From assembly GCA_035293285.1 (NCBI GenBank), contig DATDOM010000046.1:5982-69981 (forward strand): DNA of 64,000 nucleotides. Direction: 5' to 3'. Shown here in pieces: positions 5,531 through 11,612 of the stretch. The notes beneath the pieces were generated by a model. It saw only the letters and a list, made by a program, of their open reading frames with translations, did no database searches and was not told the DNA's origin. The translations under genes and the position numbers were made by a program. Each line of letters starts with the position of its first letter. Positions within the stretch are counted from its first letter, which is position 1. The DNA is from Candidatus Nanoarchaeia archaeon. GTDB taxonomy: Archaea > Nanobdellota > Nanobdellia > Woesearchaeales > GW2011-AR4.

Positions 5531-6424
5531 TTATTTCCCAAATTTCTGGAACACAAGCAAATCCTCGTTAGTCAACTTCTGTCCTTTCCTTATTTTTTCA
5601 TTGACTATTTCTTCCTTTGACCTTAGAATAGACTCTTCATCCATCTTTCTCTGTTCCCTTCTTTCATAATCCATCTTGTCAAGTTCATCTCGTGCCTGGT
5701 TCATGTTTTTAAGATTGCCTTTTAGAGTTGAATTTGCTTCTGAAAACTTGCTTTTGTATTCCACAAATTTTTTCAGTGCTTCTTCTTCCTGCGGCTTTAC
5801 ACTGTCAATTTCGGCTGAAAGCTTTAGAATCTGCTCGTGAAGCAATTGTCCTGCTTTTGCTTTTTCCTGAATCTGCCTGTGAATGTCATTTGCATCTTTC
5901 CTGATTTTGTCAAGCTCGCCCCTTTCCTGCCTTGATTTTCGGCTTGATGCCATCGAATCCCTTATACTGTCATAAGCCTTTCTAAGCTGCTTGATTTTTT
6001 TCATCAATGCCTGCTCCTTGTCAAAAGACATAGGCTCAGTCTCCATTTTAAACTCAAGCTGTTCCATTTGCGCCTTGAGTTTTCCAGGAGATTCCCTGAA
6101 TTCCATAGGCCTCTGAGGAGCTATTACTTCTTTTTCAGGCTGCTTGGCCTTTAGTTCCTTTGATTTTTCAGAAAGCTGCGCATTAAACGCATCTCTTTTG
6201 ACTTTAAGGTCTTTGACTTCCTGAGTTATTGCATCCCTTTGAGTCTTAAGCTCCTTTATTTTATGGATGTCTGATTTAATCTTAGTAGAAATCTCCTGCT
6301 TCTTGGAGTACCAGGATTCCTTCTCATTGTCAAGCTGGTTAAGGTTCTCCTTTAATTTGGAAACCTCGTCCCTGCTCTTTTTGAGGCCTTCAACTACCTC
6401 CTTCTTTCGTTCTTGCGATGTCAT
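5531..6424 (-). CDS. archaeal coiled-coil protein (COG1340-like)
   Basis: 297 aa of K/E/Q-rich heptad-like sequence throughout. Confidence 0.5.
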   Translation of the reverse strand: MTSQERKKEVVEGLKKSRDEVSKLKENLNQLDNEKESWYSKKQEISTKIKSDIHKIKELKTQRDAITQEVKDLKVKRDAFNAQLSEKSKELKAKQPEKEVIAPQRPMEFRESPGKLKAQMEQLEFKMETEPMSFDKEQALMKKIKQLRKAYDSIRDSMASSRKSRQERGELDKIRKDANDIHRQIQEKAKAGQLLHEQILKLSAEIDSVKPQEEEALKKFVEYKSKFSEANSTLKGNLKNMNQARDELDKMDYERREQRKMDEESILRSKEEIVNEKIRKGQKLTNEDLLVFQKFGK

Positions 6425-6458
6425 AAAAATTAAATGAAATAAAATTCATTCCCAGCAA

Positions 6459-6776
6459 TTAACCAAACAGTGCGCCAAGGCCTGCTGCTGCAGATTCTTC
6501 TGACTTCTTCTCATCAGCTGCTTTCTTAGCGTGGTCTGCTTTTGCATCATGTTTATGCTCGTGTCCGCCTGCTGCCGGAGCAGCTGCTACAACCTGAGCT
6601 ACTGATGCCTTTTCAATTGCCTCATCTATATTTACTCCTTCCAAAGCTGCTACAAGCGCCTTAGCCCTTGCCTCGTCAACTTTAACGTGAGCTGCCTCAA
6701 GCACTTTTTTCACTGAAGCTTCATCTACTTTCTGCCCTGCTTTGTGGAGCAACATTGCTGCGTATACGTATTCCAT
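6459..6776 (-). CDS. rpl12: 50S ribosomal stalk protein P1 (L12)
   Basis: [19 protein letters not shown]..., an Ala-rich hinge and a C-terminal GLGALFG. Confidence 0.9.
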
Positions 6777-6803
6777 TTTAACCTCCTAAGTTTATTTTAA
6801 GTT

Positions 6804-7157
6804 TTAATTTAATTCTTTAAGCGTTAACCCTTTAGCTTTATACGTATCTTTAAACCCACTAAATTGTGATTCATCAATATAAAAAATTAATTTTGTCCTT
6901 GAAATGTATTCCATTACTTCATCTGATTCGGGAGATAATGGCACACTACTATACCCTCTAAAGGTTTTTTGATCAACATTTAACGCGTAACCGCCGTGTC
7001 CTTCTCCAATTGAATCCACTCTTAAAACCCAACACTGGCCACTTGGTTTAATTACCACAGCTTCAAGCATGCCGAAAGTTTTACTAATTTGTCTTAATCT
7101 ATCGGAAAGACATGTTTCGTCCTTTGGGATTTTTGAATAATATATTGTTTCTGCCAT
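6804..7157 (-). CDS. hypothetical protein, paralog of 8039-8329, inserted between P0 and P1
   Basis: MAETIYYSKIPKD... shares its N-terminal YYSKIxKD block with the other insert. It starts 4 nt after the P0 stop. Confidence 0.5.
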   Translation of the reverse strand: MAETIYYSKIPKDETCLSDRLRQISKTFGMLEAVVIKPSGQCWVLRVDSIGEGHGGYALNVDQKTFRGYSSVPLSPESDEVMEYISRTKLIFYIDESQFSGFKDTYKAKGLTLKELN

Positions 7158-7161
7158 TTTA

Positions 7162-8037
7162 TTATAAGTTTCCTGCTGATTTCACGCCTGACATCTGATT
7201 ATGAGCTTTTGCTAAAAGCAATTCCATTATCCCTGTATCAAAGATATTTTGTGAAACTCCAAGTGATTTTGCGTCGTTATGAGCTTTTCCTACAAGCAAG
7301 CTGATGTTGTCTTTTGTTGGGTAAGCAATGAAGTTTGCCAAGTTAAATGCCCATCTTGAAGCGTTTGACAAGTTCTGCATGAACTGCTTTTCATCAACTG
7401 ACAAGACTTCTCTGCCATAGATTATGCCGTTTTCATAAACTGCAACAAGCCCAAGGCCAACTTCCATAGGCTGTATTCCAAGCCTTGTCAAAATCTCTGC
7501 AACCTTTGGCTTGATTTTCTCGCCTGCCTTTACAACAACAACATCTTCCTTGATTGCTATTTTCCCGCCTTCAACGCCGGCTTTTATTCCGACCATTGCA
7601 AGCTCTCCGATTATTGGGCCGGGAGCAAACGATGTTGCGCCTTTGTTTACCATGATGTCGCTTATTGCAGTTTGTCCTGCTTTTGCAAATGCAGGTGACT
7701 TGCTCTTTTGTAAAGTCCTGCTTAATTTGAAAGGATTTCCCTTTGTGAATATTAATGCAGGCATGCCGCCAAGGTGAGCTTCAATCTTCTCAATTCCTTT
7801 TTTTGAGGATTTTGTCTGTTCAATTGCAAGCTTGATTAGCCTCCTCTTTGTCATTGTAAGAACGCAGTCTTTTCTTAACTGCGCCCTCATTCCCTGTAGA
7901 GCAGAAGCTCCAAGGTTTTCCATATTGACTACTCCGATTATCGGGTATTCGTGGATTAGCTTGACAAGATTACTTACAACATCTTTCTTGTATTGCGCGA
8001 CGTGAGCTTCGTGTTTTAATTCTGTCATTTGAGTCAT
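7162..8037 (-). CDS. rpl10: 50S ribosomal protein uL10 (P0)
   Basis: 291 aa with ...YPIIGVVNMENLGASALQGMRAQLR..., positioned between L1 and P1. Confidence 0.9.
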   Translation of the reverse strand: MTQMTELKHEAHVAQYKKDVVSNLVKLIHEYPIIGVVNMENLGASALQGMRAQLRKDCVLTMTKRRLIKLAIEQTKSSKKGIEKIEAHLGGMPALIFTKGNPFKLSRTLQKSKSPAFAKAGQTAISDIMVNKGATSFAPGPIIGELAMVGIKAGVEGGKIAIKEDVVVVKAGEKIKPKVAEILTRLGIQPMEVGLGLVAVYENGIIYGREVLSVDEKQFMQNLSNASRWAFNLANFIAYPTKDNISLLVGKAHNDAKSLGVSQNIFDTGIMELLLAKAHNQMSGVKSAGNL

Positions 8038-8038
8038 T

Positions 8039-8329
8039 TTATTCTAATAGTTCCATTGTGCAATTCTTATACATATATTTCAGTGCGTGTTCTAAACCTT
8101 GTGTTTCAACATATAGCAACAAATCTGTTTCAGCTAAAGGAAATAGGCCAGGACCTTCGGCTCCGCTCAATCTACCTCCTGGGTTGGTGACGAAAGACCA
8201 AACATGATTATTTGAGCCTATTTCTACAATTTTTGAAAATTTTTTATTGTGTGTACCCATTAATTCACGAACTCGTTGGTCAATGGGAACATCCTTTTCT
8301 ATTTTCGAATAATATACCACGTTTTCCAT
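8039..8329 (-). CDS. hypothetical protein, paralog of 6804-7157, inserted between L1 and P0
   Basis: MENVVYYSKIEKD.... It starts 6 nt after the L1 stop and ends 1 nt before the P0 start. Confidence 0.5.
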   Translation of the reverse strand: MENVVYYSKIEKDVPIDQRVRELMGTHNKKFSKIVEIGSNNHVWSFVTNPGGRLSGAEGPGLFPLAETDLLLYVETQGLEHALKYMYKNCTMELLE

Positions 8330-8335
8330 TTTAGT

Positions 8336-9031
8336 TTACTTGTGTTTTTTTGATTTCTTTGCTATAGCTTCTTCGGTTTCTTCTCCAATCCTAACTGGCT
8401 TACTCATTGTAAGCTTTACCATGACGTCTTTTACGTTGTGCTTTTCATTTGGCAGAACCTGAAGAATTGAATTGTAAACTGTCATTCCGTTGTCAATCAG
8501 CTTTGCCATTTCCATATCCTCATTGCCGATTGGGCACTGGATTGCAGGGTTTAGCTTGTTTGACGCCCTGATTGTCTTTTGGAATCTTTCATAAACAACT
8601 TTTAAGTTTGCGTTTGGAGCAACTACTCCTCCTGCTTTTGGGTTTGGCATCTTTCCTCTTGGACCCAGCACCTTACCAAATACAGTAGCTACCTTTGGCA
8701 TTATGTTTGCCTGTGCAATGAAAAAATCGTGAGCAGCTGCAAGCTTCTTTATGTCTTTTTTGTCCTTGTATTTCTCAAAGTGGTCAAAAAGGATGACTGT
8801 GTCAAAGGTTCCCTTTGCCTGCGGCTCAAGCTCTGCGCCGATTAACGCGCAAGCCTTTACTTTTCTTCCTCTTGAGAATGGGAGTGTGATGAAAGTCTCT
8901 ATCTGGTGGTCCTGCTTTTTCTTGTCTAGGCCCCTTAGGTTTATGATTAAGTCAAATGTCTGCTTGAAATTTCTTTTATTAGAAGTCTCCTTTGCCTTTA
9001 TTAATGCTGCCTGTAATTGTTCTTTGTTCAT
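8336..9031 (-). CDS. rpl1: 50S ribosomal protein uL1
   Basis: ...NFKQTFDLIINLRGLD...TLPFSRGRKVKACALI...GPRGKMPNPK. Confidence 0.9.
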   Translation of the reverse strand: MNKEQLQAALIKAKETSNKRNFKQTFDLIINLRGLDKKKQDHQIETFITLPFSRGRKVKACALIGAELEPQAKGTFDTVILFDHFEKYKDKKDIKKLAAAHDFFIAQANIMPKVATVFGKVLGPRGKMPNPKAGGVVAPNANLKVVYERFQKTIRASNKLNPAIQCPIGNEDMEMAKLIDNGMTVYNSILQVLPNEKHNVKDVMVKLTMSKPVRIGEETEEAIAKKSKKHK

Positions 9032-9194
9032 TTGCTCCCTCCTACAGCGCGGTTAGACCGATGTAGTACAATGGGTGATAAAATGGTGGAAGATTACGGG
9101 GTTTTTAAATGTTTTTATTATAAAAACTTATATTATCTAATATATATTTTATATAATAGAAATGTATATATAGTGTAATACTTACATTAGTTTC

Positions 9195-9416
9195 ATGAAA
9201 GTTTTAACGTCGATGAGGTTGGATGAAAGAGTATTACAACAAATGGATTTTTTAATTGAAAGGGGGTACGCACTTAATAGGACTCACCTAATTGAAAAAT
9301 CATTGACCGTTTTTCAAAAAATGGTCGAAATGCAGCTTATTAATGAACAGCGTCAAAAGTTTGTTATAAAAGAAAAAGAGACGGAGTCTACATTATCCCT
9401 AGCTCAGTTTCTCTAA
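9195..9416 (+). CDS. ribbon-helix-helix (CopG/Arc-like) protein
   Basis: N-terminal RLDERVLQQMDFLIERGY pattern; lies directly upstream of and co-oriented with hicA. Confidence 0.5.
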   Translation: MKVLTSMRLDERVLQQMDFLIERGYALNRTHLIEKSLTVFQKMVEMQLINEQRQKFVIKEKETESTLSLAQFL

Positions 9417-9430
9417 AAAAAAGAAAAATT

Positions 9431-9655
9431 ATGAAACCAAAATCAGTAAAAGCGGTCTGCAAAGCGTTAAATAAATTAGGCTTTGAATTTGCAAGGCAGA
9501 AAGGCAGCCATATTCGTTTCGCCCATCCTGATGGCAGAAAGACAACAGTTCCGTCACATTCCGGGGAAGATATGGGCCCAAAGCTTTTGAATAAGATTGC
9601 CAAAGACATTGGAATTGATAATAAAGAATTTGAAAAAATATTAAGCAAATACTAG
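9431..9655 (+). CDS. hicA: HicA-family mRNA interferase toxin
   Basis: MKPKSVKAVCKALNKLGFEFARQKGSHIRFAHPDGRKTTVPSHSGEDMGPKLL (YcfA/HicA signature). Confidence 0.8.
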   Translation: MKPKSVKAVCKALNKLGFEFARQKGSHIRFAHPDGRKTTVPSHSGEDMGPKLLNKIAKDIGIDNKEFEKILSKY

Positions 9656-9889
9656 TTTAGGGCTAAGGGGCACTTTAATCTCTTGAATATCCACTTTCTT
9701 TAAAATAGGATTATTATCTTCCAAACACAATTCTATAACTTCTCTGACTCTTTTCATAAGCTCTTTCTTGTTTTTAGCTTGTGTGTGGCAGCCCTGTAAT
9801 TCCGGCACATCCGCAACATAATATCCAGATTCATCTTTCTCCACAAGAACTTTGAATTTCATCATTTTTAATTTAGTTTTAGATGACAT
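9641..9889 (-). CDS. hicB: HicB-like (UPF0150) antitoxin
   Basis: FKVLVEKDESGYYVADVPELQGCHTQAKNKKELMKRVREVIELCLED. It converges on hicA, and their 3' ends overlap by 15 nt. Confidence 0.7.
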   Translation of the reverse strand: MSSKTKLKMMKFKVLVEKDESGYYVADVPELQGCHTQAKNKKELMKRVREVIELCLEDNNPILKKVDIQEIKVPLSPKLVFA

Positions 9890-10026
9890 ACTAAGAACAG
9901 AGGACAGTTAAGATATAAAACTTTCGGATTTATTCTTATTTGAGTTGTTGAGTTTTGGATAAACTTTTTTATGTCGTCAACTAAATTCACGAAAGATTTA
10001 TAAACTTCATAGTAGTCACAATAGTT

Positions 10027-10428
10027 ATGGTAGGACAGGCCAATTATTATCAAGTGGGGTATATGCCTGGAGGGCGCAAATTGGTTGGGAGATTAAGCGA
10101 GGGACTGGACTATCGCGCACGGCAAGCAGGAACACCTTTTGGCGAAGAAGTGGATATTAGACTTGAAGATGTGATACCAGTTGGGCATCCAAAAATAATG
10201 TCGGGTTTGGTTTCAAGAATTGAGGTTAGTGATTCTCCAGAAAGTTATCTAGCACGCATTGATGAAGTAACAAGATTTGCAGATAAGGAGTTTCCAGTTA
10301 TTGAAGAAGGTGGAATTACAGCTAATTCATTTGTCAGTGTACCTACTTTCATTGGTGGTTCTGGTCTTCGATTACACGACTACTTATTACAATTTTACTA
10401 TATCCCAATTTTAGATAAGCAAGGTTGA
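10027..10428 (+). CDS. hypothetical protein
   Basis: 133-aa ORF with no recognisable motif. Confidence 0.3.
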   Translation: MVGQANYYQVGYMPGGRKLVGRLSEGLDYRARQAGTPFGEEVDIRLEDVIPVGHPKIMSGLVSRIEVSDSPESYLARIDEVTRFADKEFPVIEEGGITANSFVSVPTFIGGSGLRLHDYLLQFYYIPILDKQG

Positions 10429-10534
10429 TTTTTTAATCTGTCCAATTTACCCCATATTTTTACTATTTTTCTCAAGCAGGATTCACATATAGGTTTGTTA
10501 ATAACTTAAAAATTGTAGTTTTATAATATTTTAA

Positions 10535-10692
10535 GGGGCAGTTACGCCTCGCCATTTCGCTCGGCATACATCGTTTCTCAATCCAGCACATTCGCCACAT
10601 TTCGGGCGAAAATTTTTCCGTGGGAACTTTAGGTTCCACTTGATTCCGTCGTTAACTCGCGGAAGGGTTATCAGTGTTCATCCACGTCGTTA
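10535..10692 (+). repeat. composite GC-rich hairpin module (A-type fragment + inverted B module + TCAGTGTTCATCCAC box)
   Basis: 10565-10612 aligns with 42785-42835. 10614-10680 is the reverse complement of 43066-43120, with a compensated hairpin (gtgggaac/gttccac versus gtgaggc/gcctcac). Confidence 0.6.
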
Positions 10693-10778
10693 GTTATTGC
10701 AATAAATCGAGGCAAATTTTAGTGCCAGTCAAAAATTTGCCGAGTGTAAATATGGTCGCTCAAAGTGACCTATTGAAA
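10693..10778 (+). repeat. two-hairpin repeat, short form (copy E1)
   Basis: TTATTGCAATAA palindrome, CGAGG, H1 ggcaaatttt/aaaatttgcc (loop agtgccagtc), CCGAGTG, H2 ggtcgc/gtgacc. Confidence 0.75.
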
Positions 10779-10971
10779 TAGAGTTGATTTTTGGGTAAAA
10801 TAGGTATTTATACTTACTAAATCTCACCAGATATTGTAAAAATTTCAAGAATAATCCGCATAGTTGCACCATAGTGGTAGCCAAGCAAAAGATTTATTAG
10901 TTTACACCTGACATTATAAAAGCCGGTGATTCAGAGTAAAAAAGTTTGTATACGTCCAAAGAAGTGATTAA

Positions 10972-11073
10972 ATGAAACCAAAATCAGTAAAAGCAGTTTA
11001 TAAGGCATTAAACGAATTAGGGTTTGAATTTGCGAGGCAAAAAGACAACGATTTCGAAGAAAATATAAGTTAG
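10972..11073 (+). pseudogene. hicA remnant (first ~23 codons conserved, then divergent, premature stop)
   Basis: MKPKSVKAVYKALNELGFEFARQK then DNDFEENIS*. DNA is about 85% identical by eye to 9431-9500. Confidence 0.6.
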
Positions 11074-11080
11074 TTAAAAA

Positions 11081-11305
11081 ATGAAAATACCAAGAAACCT
11101 TTCAGGAATTGATGTAATAAAAGTTTTGAAAAAGCATTATGACTGGGAAGTTTACAGAAGGCAGGGGAGTCATGTCACTTTAAAGAAAAAATCAGAAATG
11201 GAAATACTAACAGTTCCGCTTCATTCTCAGCTCGACGTGGGAACATTCCTTGCTATTTTGAGAAAGGCAAATATCGAAAAAGAAGATTTTCTGAAGAATT
11301 TATAA
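11081..11305 (+). CDS. hicA: HicA-family toxin (second locus)
   Basis: IKVLKKHYDWEVYRRQGSHVTLKK...LTVPLHSQLDVGTFLAILRKANI. Confidence 0.7.
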   Translation: MKIPRNLSGIDVIKVLKKHYDWEVYRRQGSHVTLKKKSEMEILTVPLHSQLDVGTFLAILRKANIEKEDFLKNL

Positions 11306-11306
11306 G

Positions 11307-11612
11307 TTAAGAATATGTAGGAATTTTTATTGGGGCTTTGAGAAGTTCACTATTTGGAATTTCAAGTTTGTTATTTTTCCTAGTAATTCCAAGCTTTTCC
11401 AGTTCATTGTCAAGAATTCCTAATTCAGCTGCGCTCTTTAAATGCAGATTAATAGCTTCTGTAATGTTCTTTCTTGTCTTGTTTAAAGTTTTTCCCTGAG
11501 TGATTATATTCAAGTCCAAACATTCTGCAGTATACCCGTTCTTAGTTTTTCTAACAACAAAAGGAACCGGCAAGGTAAAACTCTCATTCTTATAATTAAC
11601 ATCTTTTTTCAT
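11307..11612 (-). CDS. hicB: HicB-like antitoxin (second locus)
   Basis: ...FVVRKTKNGYTAECLDLNIITQGKTLNKTRKNITEAINLHL...; convergent with 11081-11305, with 1 nt between the stops. Confidence 0.6.
   Translation of the reverse strand: MKKDVNYKNESFTLPVPFVVRKTKNGYTAECLDLNIITQGKTLNKTRKNITEAINLHLKSAAELGILDNELEKLGITRKNNKLEIPNSELLKAPIKIPTYS

Follow-up and report, generated by a model that had tools for sequence, protein, structure and literature searches.

The subject of this work is the ribosomal stalk operon (L1-P0-P1) carried by a 64,000-nucleotide stretch of the genome of a Candidatus Nanoarchaeia archaeon (order Woesearchaeales; assembly GCA_035293285.1, contig DATDOM010000046.1, positions 5,982 to 69,981), hereafter called the window, and more precisely two small open reading frames (ORFs) of 96 and 117 codons, ORF96 and ORF117, which occupy the L1/P0 and P0/P1 junctions of this operon. 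Our analysis indicated that these ORFs are probably mobile accessory cassettes housed in the operon junctions, and not parts of the ribosome, a reading to which we would give a probability of about 0.6. Both inserts stem from one recurrent gene family, both junctions are occupied in the same genome, and a mosaic between two metagenome contigs provides direct evidence of recent exchange between species. These three points are what the present analysis adds, and a literature search found no paper on them or on the junctions as insertion hotspots. Ribosomal protein operons are usually considered more static than any other part of a genome; in the genus of ultra-small archaea examined here, both stalk junctions act as landing pads for homing-endonuclease genes, repeat modules and a family of small-protein genes exchanged between species. 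Such inserts affect marker-gene phylogenies as well as the annotation of DPANN genomes.

A family of small orphan proteins

Gene order and gaps were read from the sequence of the window, whose genome is designated G000 below. The genes follow one another on the minus strand as L1, ORF96, P0, ORF117 and P1, with 6 nucleotides (nt) between the L1 stop codon and the ATG of ORF96, 1 nt between the stop of ORF96 and the ATG of P0, 4 nt between the stop of P0 and the ATG of ORF117, and 27 nt between the stop of ORF117 and the ATG of P1. This last gap contains GGAGG, the only such site at the junctions downstream of L1 in this operon, and GGAGG also precedes P1 in most relatives. The initial annotation of this DNA had described two paralogous ORFs wedged between L1, P0 and P1, and its coordinates, spacings and N-terminal sequences all proved correct on re-reading. 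Taking stop codons to occur at about 0.07 per codon in DNA of about 36% GC, we estimate the chance of open frames of this length at about 1e-3 for 96 codons and about 2e-4 for 117 codons; two such frames exactly filling two junctions on the operon strand are far beyond chance.

The paralogy of the two ORFs, also claimed at the outset, is weak in pairwise comparison and solid at the level of the family. BLASTP aligned only their first 27 residues (41% identity, E 3e-4), and their identity amounted to about 23-31%, depending on the alignment. A third member was found in G003, another species of the same genus, as an ORF of 114 amino acids (aa) between P0 and P1 (L015:467-811, minus strand). It aligned end to end with ORF96 and ORF117, the three having in common an N-terminal IYY strand, an R..R.L helix, a Trp-bearing strand, an LILY strand and a C-terminal L.EL. 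The profile of these three sequences, searched against 1.84 billion representative proteins, retrieved six more full-length small proteins (P0004, P0008, P0009, P0010, P0011 and P0013; E 3e-14 to 5e-4), and P0018 was added by a later search; all are metagenome singletons, and the family now comprises about 11 known sequences. ORF96 and ORF117 matched the family profile with E values of 3e-31 and 5e-48, respectively. Members measure 96-129 aa, with one predicted at 144 aa, and most of them are mildly acidic (pI 5-6.5). They are 16-47% identical to each other, except for the pair formed by the ORF96-like members P0010 and P0018 (76%), as against about 75% for P0 across the genus. The later conserved Trp mentioned in the initial annotation (W43/W44) is retained in eight of the nine aligned members. 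In P0011 (38%) ORF117 has a relative closer to it than ORF96 (31%), and ORF96 is roughly equidistant from all members (24-32%), so that the two copies in the window are not recent duplicates of each other.

AlphaFold predicted the same order of elements for both proteins, namely strand, helix, two or three strands, helix, strand, helix and strand. The ORF96 model, computed with 9 sequences, reached a predicted local distance difference test score (pLDDT) of 89.9 and a predicted template modelling score (pTM) of 0.83; the ORF117 model, computed with 3 sequences, reached 71.9 and 0.69, and contained in addition a disordered loop at residues 51-70. ORF96 and ORF117 thus appear to be real, foldable proteins and true but distant paralogs, since the third member, the family profile and the matching AlphaFold models all point that way.

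The family matched no described family in the databases searched, and the initial annotation had indeed recognised none. Word-indexed homology searches with each ORF alone returned only the queries themselves, and Pfam, NCBIfam and PHROGs gave no credible match for any of nine members, WSN, EutN and NADase_transloc being rejected with scores below the cut-offs. PADLOC gave no match at E values up to 1, and a sequence profile search of the PDB gave nothing below E 0.19. No homology to the Ribosomal_L10, Ribosomal_60s or L11 families was detected in Pfam. An RNA element was ruled out as an explanation by the Rfam search of window positions 6300-9300, which had no match. Structural comparisons of two models (Foldseek against the PDB, and a VIA-align wide search) listed generic three-layer alpha/beta look-alikes with Z scores of at most 5.7, including de novo P-loop-like designs, the T4 polynucleotide kinase domain and the Mur-ligase C-terminal domain, and no nuclease fold, though such a fold may escape these searches; low-score GAF-like and ACT-like leads from the ESM Atlas were dismissed as noise. 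A P-loop NTPase-like kinase was also rejected, the structural Z being only 4.5-5.7 and the Walker A motif GxxxxGK[ST] not being present after strand 1. At this place ORF117 reads YYSKIPKDETC and ORF96 YYSKIEKDVPI, and a glycine-rich loop is found there in no member. The ORFs were considered as diverged duplicates of P1, on account of their similar length, ME..V.Y start and duplicated leader; the N-terminal domain of P1 is helical, as opposed to the alpha/beta fold predicted for the ORFs, and this origin was discarded. In the nine-member alignment, no Asp, Glu, His or Lys column is invariant, nor is any polar residue. The protein has no conserved catalytic residue. It is probably non-enzymatic, and a binding module is the most likely role, with selection that is relaxed or diversifying.

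Insertion and probable exchange at the stalk junctions

The family is rare and patchy. Within the genus, its profile detected members in 2 of 43 species genomes, twice in G000 and once in G003, a weak match in G054 proving to be spurious (a 331-aa helical protein). Besides the window's own genome, no match was obtained in an order sample of 400 genomes from 257 genera, nor in a phylum sample of 400 high-quality genomes, and single-protein scans of viral contigs and of genome contigs found nothing. P0009 is carried by a 27.6-kb metagenome contig, L037, where L1, P0 (392 aa, long form), the 112-aa family gene (ORF112), P1 and DUF7121 follow each other in synteny with the window, and also by a second, short metagenome contig, L038, directly in front of P1. 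All copies with a known context, five genes in four genomes or contigs (the window twice, G003 at L015, L037 and L038), belong to the stalk operon in a single Woesearchaeota genus; this set does not include P0004, P0008, P0010, P0011, P0013 and P0018. The neighbours of the placed copies were only ribosomal genes at all these loci, and no partner toxin adjoined any copy. As regards conservation in relatives, which the initial annotation had considered decisive, the family is kept as a protein, and at the same P0/P1 site, in G003 and in L037/L038. The carriers could not be regarded as one clade: a tree of P0 and L1 was an unresolved star, with no support for a grouping of G000 with G003. In this L1 and P0 core, G000 has a terminal branch of 0.49, against a genus median of 0.18, which may denote an outlier species or faster-evolving stalk genes.

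The junctions themselves were compared across about 38 L1-P0-P1 loci assembled from species of the genus. Their ancestral state is clear, with 0-1 nt between L1 and P0, as in most species, and down to 12-30 nt, including GGAGG, between P0 and P1 in the tightest loci, in agreement with the starting premise that these three genes are normally contiguous. Departures from this state are frequent and varied. AT-rich filler is one of them; another consists of GC-rich hairpin repeat modules, which occupy both junctions (L010, L011, L013, L014, L017, L023 and L037). These modules lie between L1 and P0 in L011, L014, L017 and L037, and between P0 and P1 in L010, L011, L013 and L023, typical sequences being ACGAGAGCGAC...AATCCGCTTTTGATG and GGCGAGGCAAA...TTTGCCGAGC.

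Larger genes are also found there. In G007, G023 and G048 (L020, L021 and L048), a gene encoding 365-416 aa lies between P0 and P1; Pfam identified LAGLIDADG_3 and winged-helix domains in the G007 protein, and the other two were judged homologous by sequence and motifs. Between G007 and G048, these endonuclease genes are 85% identical at the DNA level, compared with 75% for P0 and 70% for L1, which is the signature expected of a mobile gene. In G016 (L022:2575-2628, P0 on the + strand), the 54-nt P0-P1 spacer together with the first bases of P1 constitutes a stretch of 65 nt that is 95% identical to the end of the G007 locus (L020), where the 3' end of the endonuclease gene runs into P1; the spacer is a relic of a LAGLIDADG gene gained and then lost. 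These LAGLIDADG plus helix-turn-helix (HTH) genes resemble the small family in their site, which starts right behind the P0 stop codon and extends to the P1 ribosome-binding site, in their low GC content at third codon positions (GC3) and in their patchy distribution in the genus. They differ from it in their size and in their domains, and their sequences are not similar to those of the small proteins (96-129 aa). A LAGLIDADG gene and a family member occurred together at a junction in no genome examined. Two more LAGLIDADG-type frames are present in G000, at C47:13337-14419 (+) and C66:2436-3086 (-), 31% and 29% identical, respectively, to the G007 endonuclease.

The composition of the small genes is distinct from that of the operon. 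GC3 is 0.278 in ORF96 and 0.237 in ORF117, against 0.435 in L1, 0.394 in P0 and 0.330 in P1, the genome mean for long ORFs being 0.401 (sd 0.062). In all four cassettes of the window, G003 and L037, GC3 ranges from 0.19 to 0.31, versus 0.33-0.53 in the flanking genes; it is 0.21-0.22 in the LAGLIDADG genes of the P0/P1 junction.

Evidence of recent exchange came from the comparison of L037 with L038. ORF112 differs between the two contigs at 4 of 339 nt (98.8% identity), whereas P1, which begins only 44 nt downstream, differs at about 50 of 315 nt plus a 6-nt indel (83.6% identity), a contrast with a Fisher p of 6e-13. The value for P1 corresponds to the ordinary between-species level in the genus. 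Identity switches between the last ORF112 difference (position 269) and the P1 leader. Downstream, the DNA of L038 is 92% identical to that of G057, a genome with no cassette, and its gene content there is unlike that of L037. All four recent changes in ORF112 are non-synonymous, with no synonymous one, an outcome with a probability of 0.015 if omega is 0.15 and of 0.375 under neutrality. This suggests relaxed or diversifying selection, the counts being very small.

Direct repeats of the P1 start region bracket every P0-P1 cassette. They measure 42 nt in L015 (83% identity), where they take in a hairpin and the ribosome-binding site, 17 nt in L037 (88%) and 14 nt in the window (93%), where the two copies are spaced by 367 nt. 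At the other junction, the start context of ORF96, ACTAAAATGGAA, is exactly the native L1/P0 junction of L016, and its end, TAAAATG, recreates the native 1-nt stop-start junction for P0. As evidence of mobility, these flanking repeats are supportive, not decisive; the low GC3, the L037/L038 mosaic and the low identity among members relative to that of P0 point in the same direction.

In terms of mechanism, the cassettes would have become established at both of the narrow gene junctions between L1, P0 and P1. Each P0-P1 cassette lies directly before the P1 start, bracketed by the repeat of the P1 start region, in such a way that the cassette would use the upstream copy and P1 the downstream copy. 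The cassettes of the window have no evident signals of their own and would probably ride on the operon transcript and on stop-restart translation, because the gaps are of 6, 1 and 4 nt; the co-transcription and translational coupling put forward in the initial annotation fit this spacing, from which we infer them. Passage between species of the genus might rely on recombination in the conserved ribosomal genes on either side or, alternatively, on trans-homing, with repair of the breaks left by LAGLIDADG endonucleases whose target is this very junction.

Known systems and alternative explanations

The window operon keeps the gene order, the strand, the 1-nt stop-start before P0 and the P1 GGAGG of the canonical archaeal L1-L10(P0)-L12(P1) operon, but it differs from it by two extra cistrons and by a P0 that does not have the C-terminal extension typical of the genus. 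Orphan genes have reportedly been described as inserted into existing operons by Price, Arkin and Alm in 2006, in 'The life-cycle of operons'. The cassettes resemble such insertions, and phage 'morons', in that a lineage-restricted gene of no assigned function and of atypical composition is added between otherwise contiguous genes without breaking the operon, whose signals it uses. Unlike one-off accretion, however, one family recurs here at the same junction, occupies two junctions in one genome and is exchanged between species, which argues for site-specific mobility. A parallel may also be drawn with the free-standing homing genes of T4-like phages (seg and mob), likewise extra genes wedged in junctions of conserved genes, patchy among relatives, foreign in composition and more alike between genomes than their flanks; the sporadic distribution of the cassettes, and the identity of ORF112 (98.8%) set against that of the adjacent P1 (83.6%), follow the same pattern. 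The cassettes are unlike these homing genes in that they display no nuclease motif and no matched nuclease fold, and in that their hosts are cellular archaea, not phages. In T4-like phages, mobE is reported to mobilise the defunct I-TevIII, and a nuclease can mobilise adjoining DNA which does not encode it (PMC2790892). By comparison with this trans-homing, the cassettes may receive help from the LAGLIDADG enzymes of sister species.

Another explanation is that the small proteins belong to the translation machinery after all, as a lineage-specific factor of the stalk or GTPase centre that would bind P0, P1 or L11, or the factors recruited there, and that would be made together with the stalk proteins because it works with them. 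In one version, they may compensate for an extension missing from P0 in G000 and G003. The P0 of the window indeed ends just after the last spine helix (..KSAGNL), and most P0 proteins of the genus (loci L005-L026 and L039-L054) have about 60-100 aa more, in a charged region that ends in a conserved APTREELEANIKMREKQ.EVKEVEKIYH, a motif different from the canonical acidic GLGALFG-type tail. This segment was sought throughout G000 and was not found. Seven species (G000, G003, G007, G010, G050, G051 and G056) have a short P0 with the same end point, and short forms also exist elsewhere in the order, in other families. A short P0 occurs with a small gene, with a LAGLIDADG gene or with an empty junction, and a long P0 is combined with an insert in L037 and G048. 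The small genes are independent of P0 length, which argues against a functional replacement of the extension. ORF117 was likewise rejected as a displaced P0 extension, the segment not being found in G000 and L037 having both the extension and the gene. The longest P0 frame seen, of 553 aa, belongs to G033, a member of the same order and of another family (L027:1501-3162, P0 on the + strand), and its excess is mostly a long charged C-terminal region.

The idea of a stalk factor draws on the location of all context-known members inside the stalk operon, on the tight coupling in the window, which would give roughly matched synthesis, on the position of the gene after a short, extension-less P0 in G000 and G003, and on a fold kept over deep divergence. 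Against it stand the rarity of the family, detected in 2 of 43 genus species and, apart from the window's genome, not found in order and phylum samples of about 400 genomes each, and the absence of any link to P0 length, L037 having a long P0 with the gene, and G010, G050, G051 and G056 a short P0 without it. Moreover, members are 16-47% identical (one pair at 76%) against about 75% for P0, they share no invariant surface polar residue, their recent changes are four non-synonymous to none synonymous, and they bear a transfer signature and a low GC3 similar to what the endonuclease genes of this site display. We consequently regard such a factor as unlikely. Site-specific insertion beside conserved genes, patchiness with signs of lateral transfer and the presence of known free-standing homing genes at the same site would also suit a new, very small homing endonuclease, or another self-mobilising enzyme, cutting the empty junction and bringing about its own spread. 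This seems to us very improbable, however, given that no match to a nuclease family was obtained in Pfam, PHROGs or the PDB, that the nine-member alignment has no invariant Asp, Glu, His or Lys, that fold searches with two models listed only generic alpha/beta proteins (Z at most 5.7), and that a pI mostly of 5-6.5 is unusual for DNA-binding enzymes. A homing endonuclease recognisable by its domain or catalytic motif (LAGLIDADG, GIY-YIG, HNH, His-Cys box, PD-(D/E)xK or EDxHD) was rejected, neither being found in the nine members. As for a protective protein of the immunity or anti-toxin type, directed for instance against an attacker of the stalk or of the translation apparatus, its diversity would be that of an arms race, with exchange between species. 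Cassettes that are hypervariable at one locus, laterally exchanged and enriched in recent non-synonymous change, and proteins that are small, acidic and predicted to be non-enzymatic, would suit this role, and the window has HicAB toxin-antitoxin modules immediately upstream of its L1 gene. It nevertheless appears improbable, though less so than the minimal nuclease, as no partner toxin gene was found beside any copy, PADLOC gave no match, and nothing links the family to an attacker, this role being deduced purely from the evolutionary pattern.

Several points weigh against mobile cassettes as well. Five of the approximately 11 members lie on short contigs, so that a constant location in the stalk operon rests on four genomes or contigs. 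The L037/L038 mosaic comes from two metagenome assemblies, one of just 1,096 nt, and might be a chimera. Given their small size and AT-rich sequence, the repeats of the window (14 nt) and those around ORF96 (about 8 nt) could be convergent start contexts. Neither the cassettes nor the genes beside them encode a nuclease, a recombinase or another mobility function, and the mechanism of transfer is deduced. The predicted fold is kept across members that are 16-47% identical, which points to some selection acting on the protein, and the exclusive association with this operon could likewise reflect a function at the stalk. With these reservations, mobile accessory cassettes remain our preferred reading. 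The observation made in the initial annotation is confirmed and its interpretation partly supported: of the two roles then suggested, the selfish or immunity-type cassette is favoured by the rarity of the family, by its signs of lateral transfer and by a site common with homing-endonuclease genes, and the stalk-associated accessory factor is less favoured.

More speculatively, the cassette might be a nuclease-free hitchhiker specialised for the stalk operon, which would spread among Woesearchaeota species by using the breaks that LAGLIDADG enzymes of sister genomes make at the P0/P1 junction, and would shield the junction of its carrier by disrupting their target, or else a new, fast-evolving ligand of the stalk or GTPase centre. 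We hold this pair of possibilities as rather unlikely; if one of them were true, a previously undescribed class of element or factor would be tied to a highly conserved operon. With a function at the stalk, the small proteins would constitute a new lineage-specific layer at the place where translation factors are recruited. Should they be pure hitchhikers, they would offer a clean natural case of non-nuclease genes persisting by means of a homing hotspot and translational coupling.

Features of the operon and its surroundings

The genes and signals of the window operon are collected in Table 1.

Table 1. Features of the stalk operon in the window (positions within the 64,000-nt stretch).
Feature	Position	Strand	Basis
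Ribosomal protein L1 gene, first in the operon, 231 aa	8336..9031	-	Pfam Ribosomal_L1, E 7e-39
ORF96 (P0001), small gene of the orphan family (predicted alpha/beta) at the L1/P0 junction, 96 aa	8039..8329	-	
P0 (L10) gene, short form, 291 aa	7162..8037	-	Pfam Ribosomal_L10 and RL10P_insert
ORF117 (P0002), gene of the orphan family (predicted alpha/beta) at the P0/P1 junction, 117 aa	6804..7157	-	
P1 (L12) stalk protein gene, 105 aa, canonical GLGALFG tail	6459..6776	-	Pfam Ribosomal_60s, E 8e-14
Direct repeat, 14 nt, upstream copy AAACTTATAATAAA, spanning the P0 stop to the ORF117 ATG	7158..7171	-	Repeat search, 93% identity
Direct repeat, 14 nt, downstream copy AAACTTAAAATAAA, from within the ORF117 stop codon to just before the P1 ribosome-binding site	6791..6804	-	Repeat search
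GGAGG, P1 ribosome-binding site	6782..6786	-	Read from sequence

Most species of the genus have an L1 of 226 aa; that of the window is 5 aa longer at its C-terminus. ORF96 is in frame with L1, the two being separated by TAA ACT AAA (window 8330-8338); read-through of the single L1 stop codon would yield an L1-ORF96 fusion, and no sign of this was seen. Directly upstream of the L1 promoter region (window 9195-11612) are HicA/HicB-like toxin-antitoxin pairs and other small accessory genes, and the stalk operon therefore borders an accessory-gene patch.

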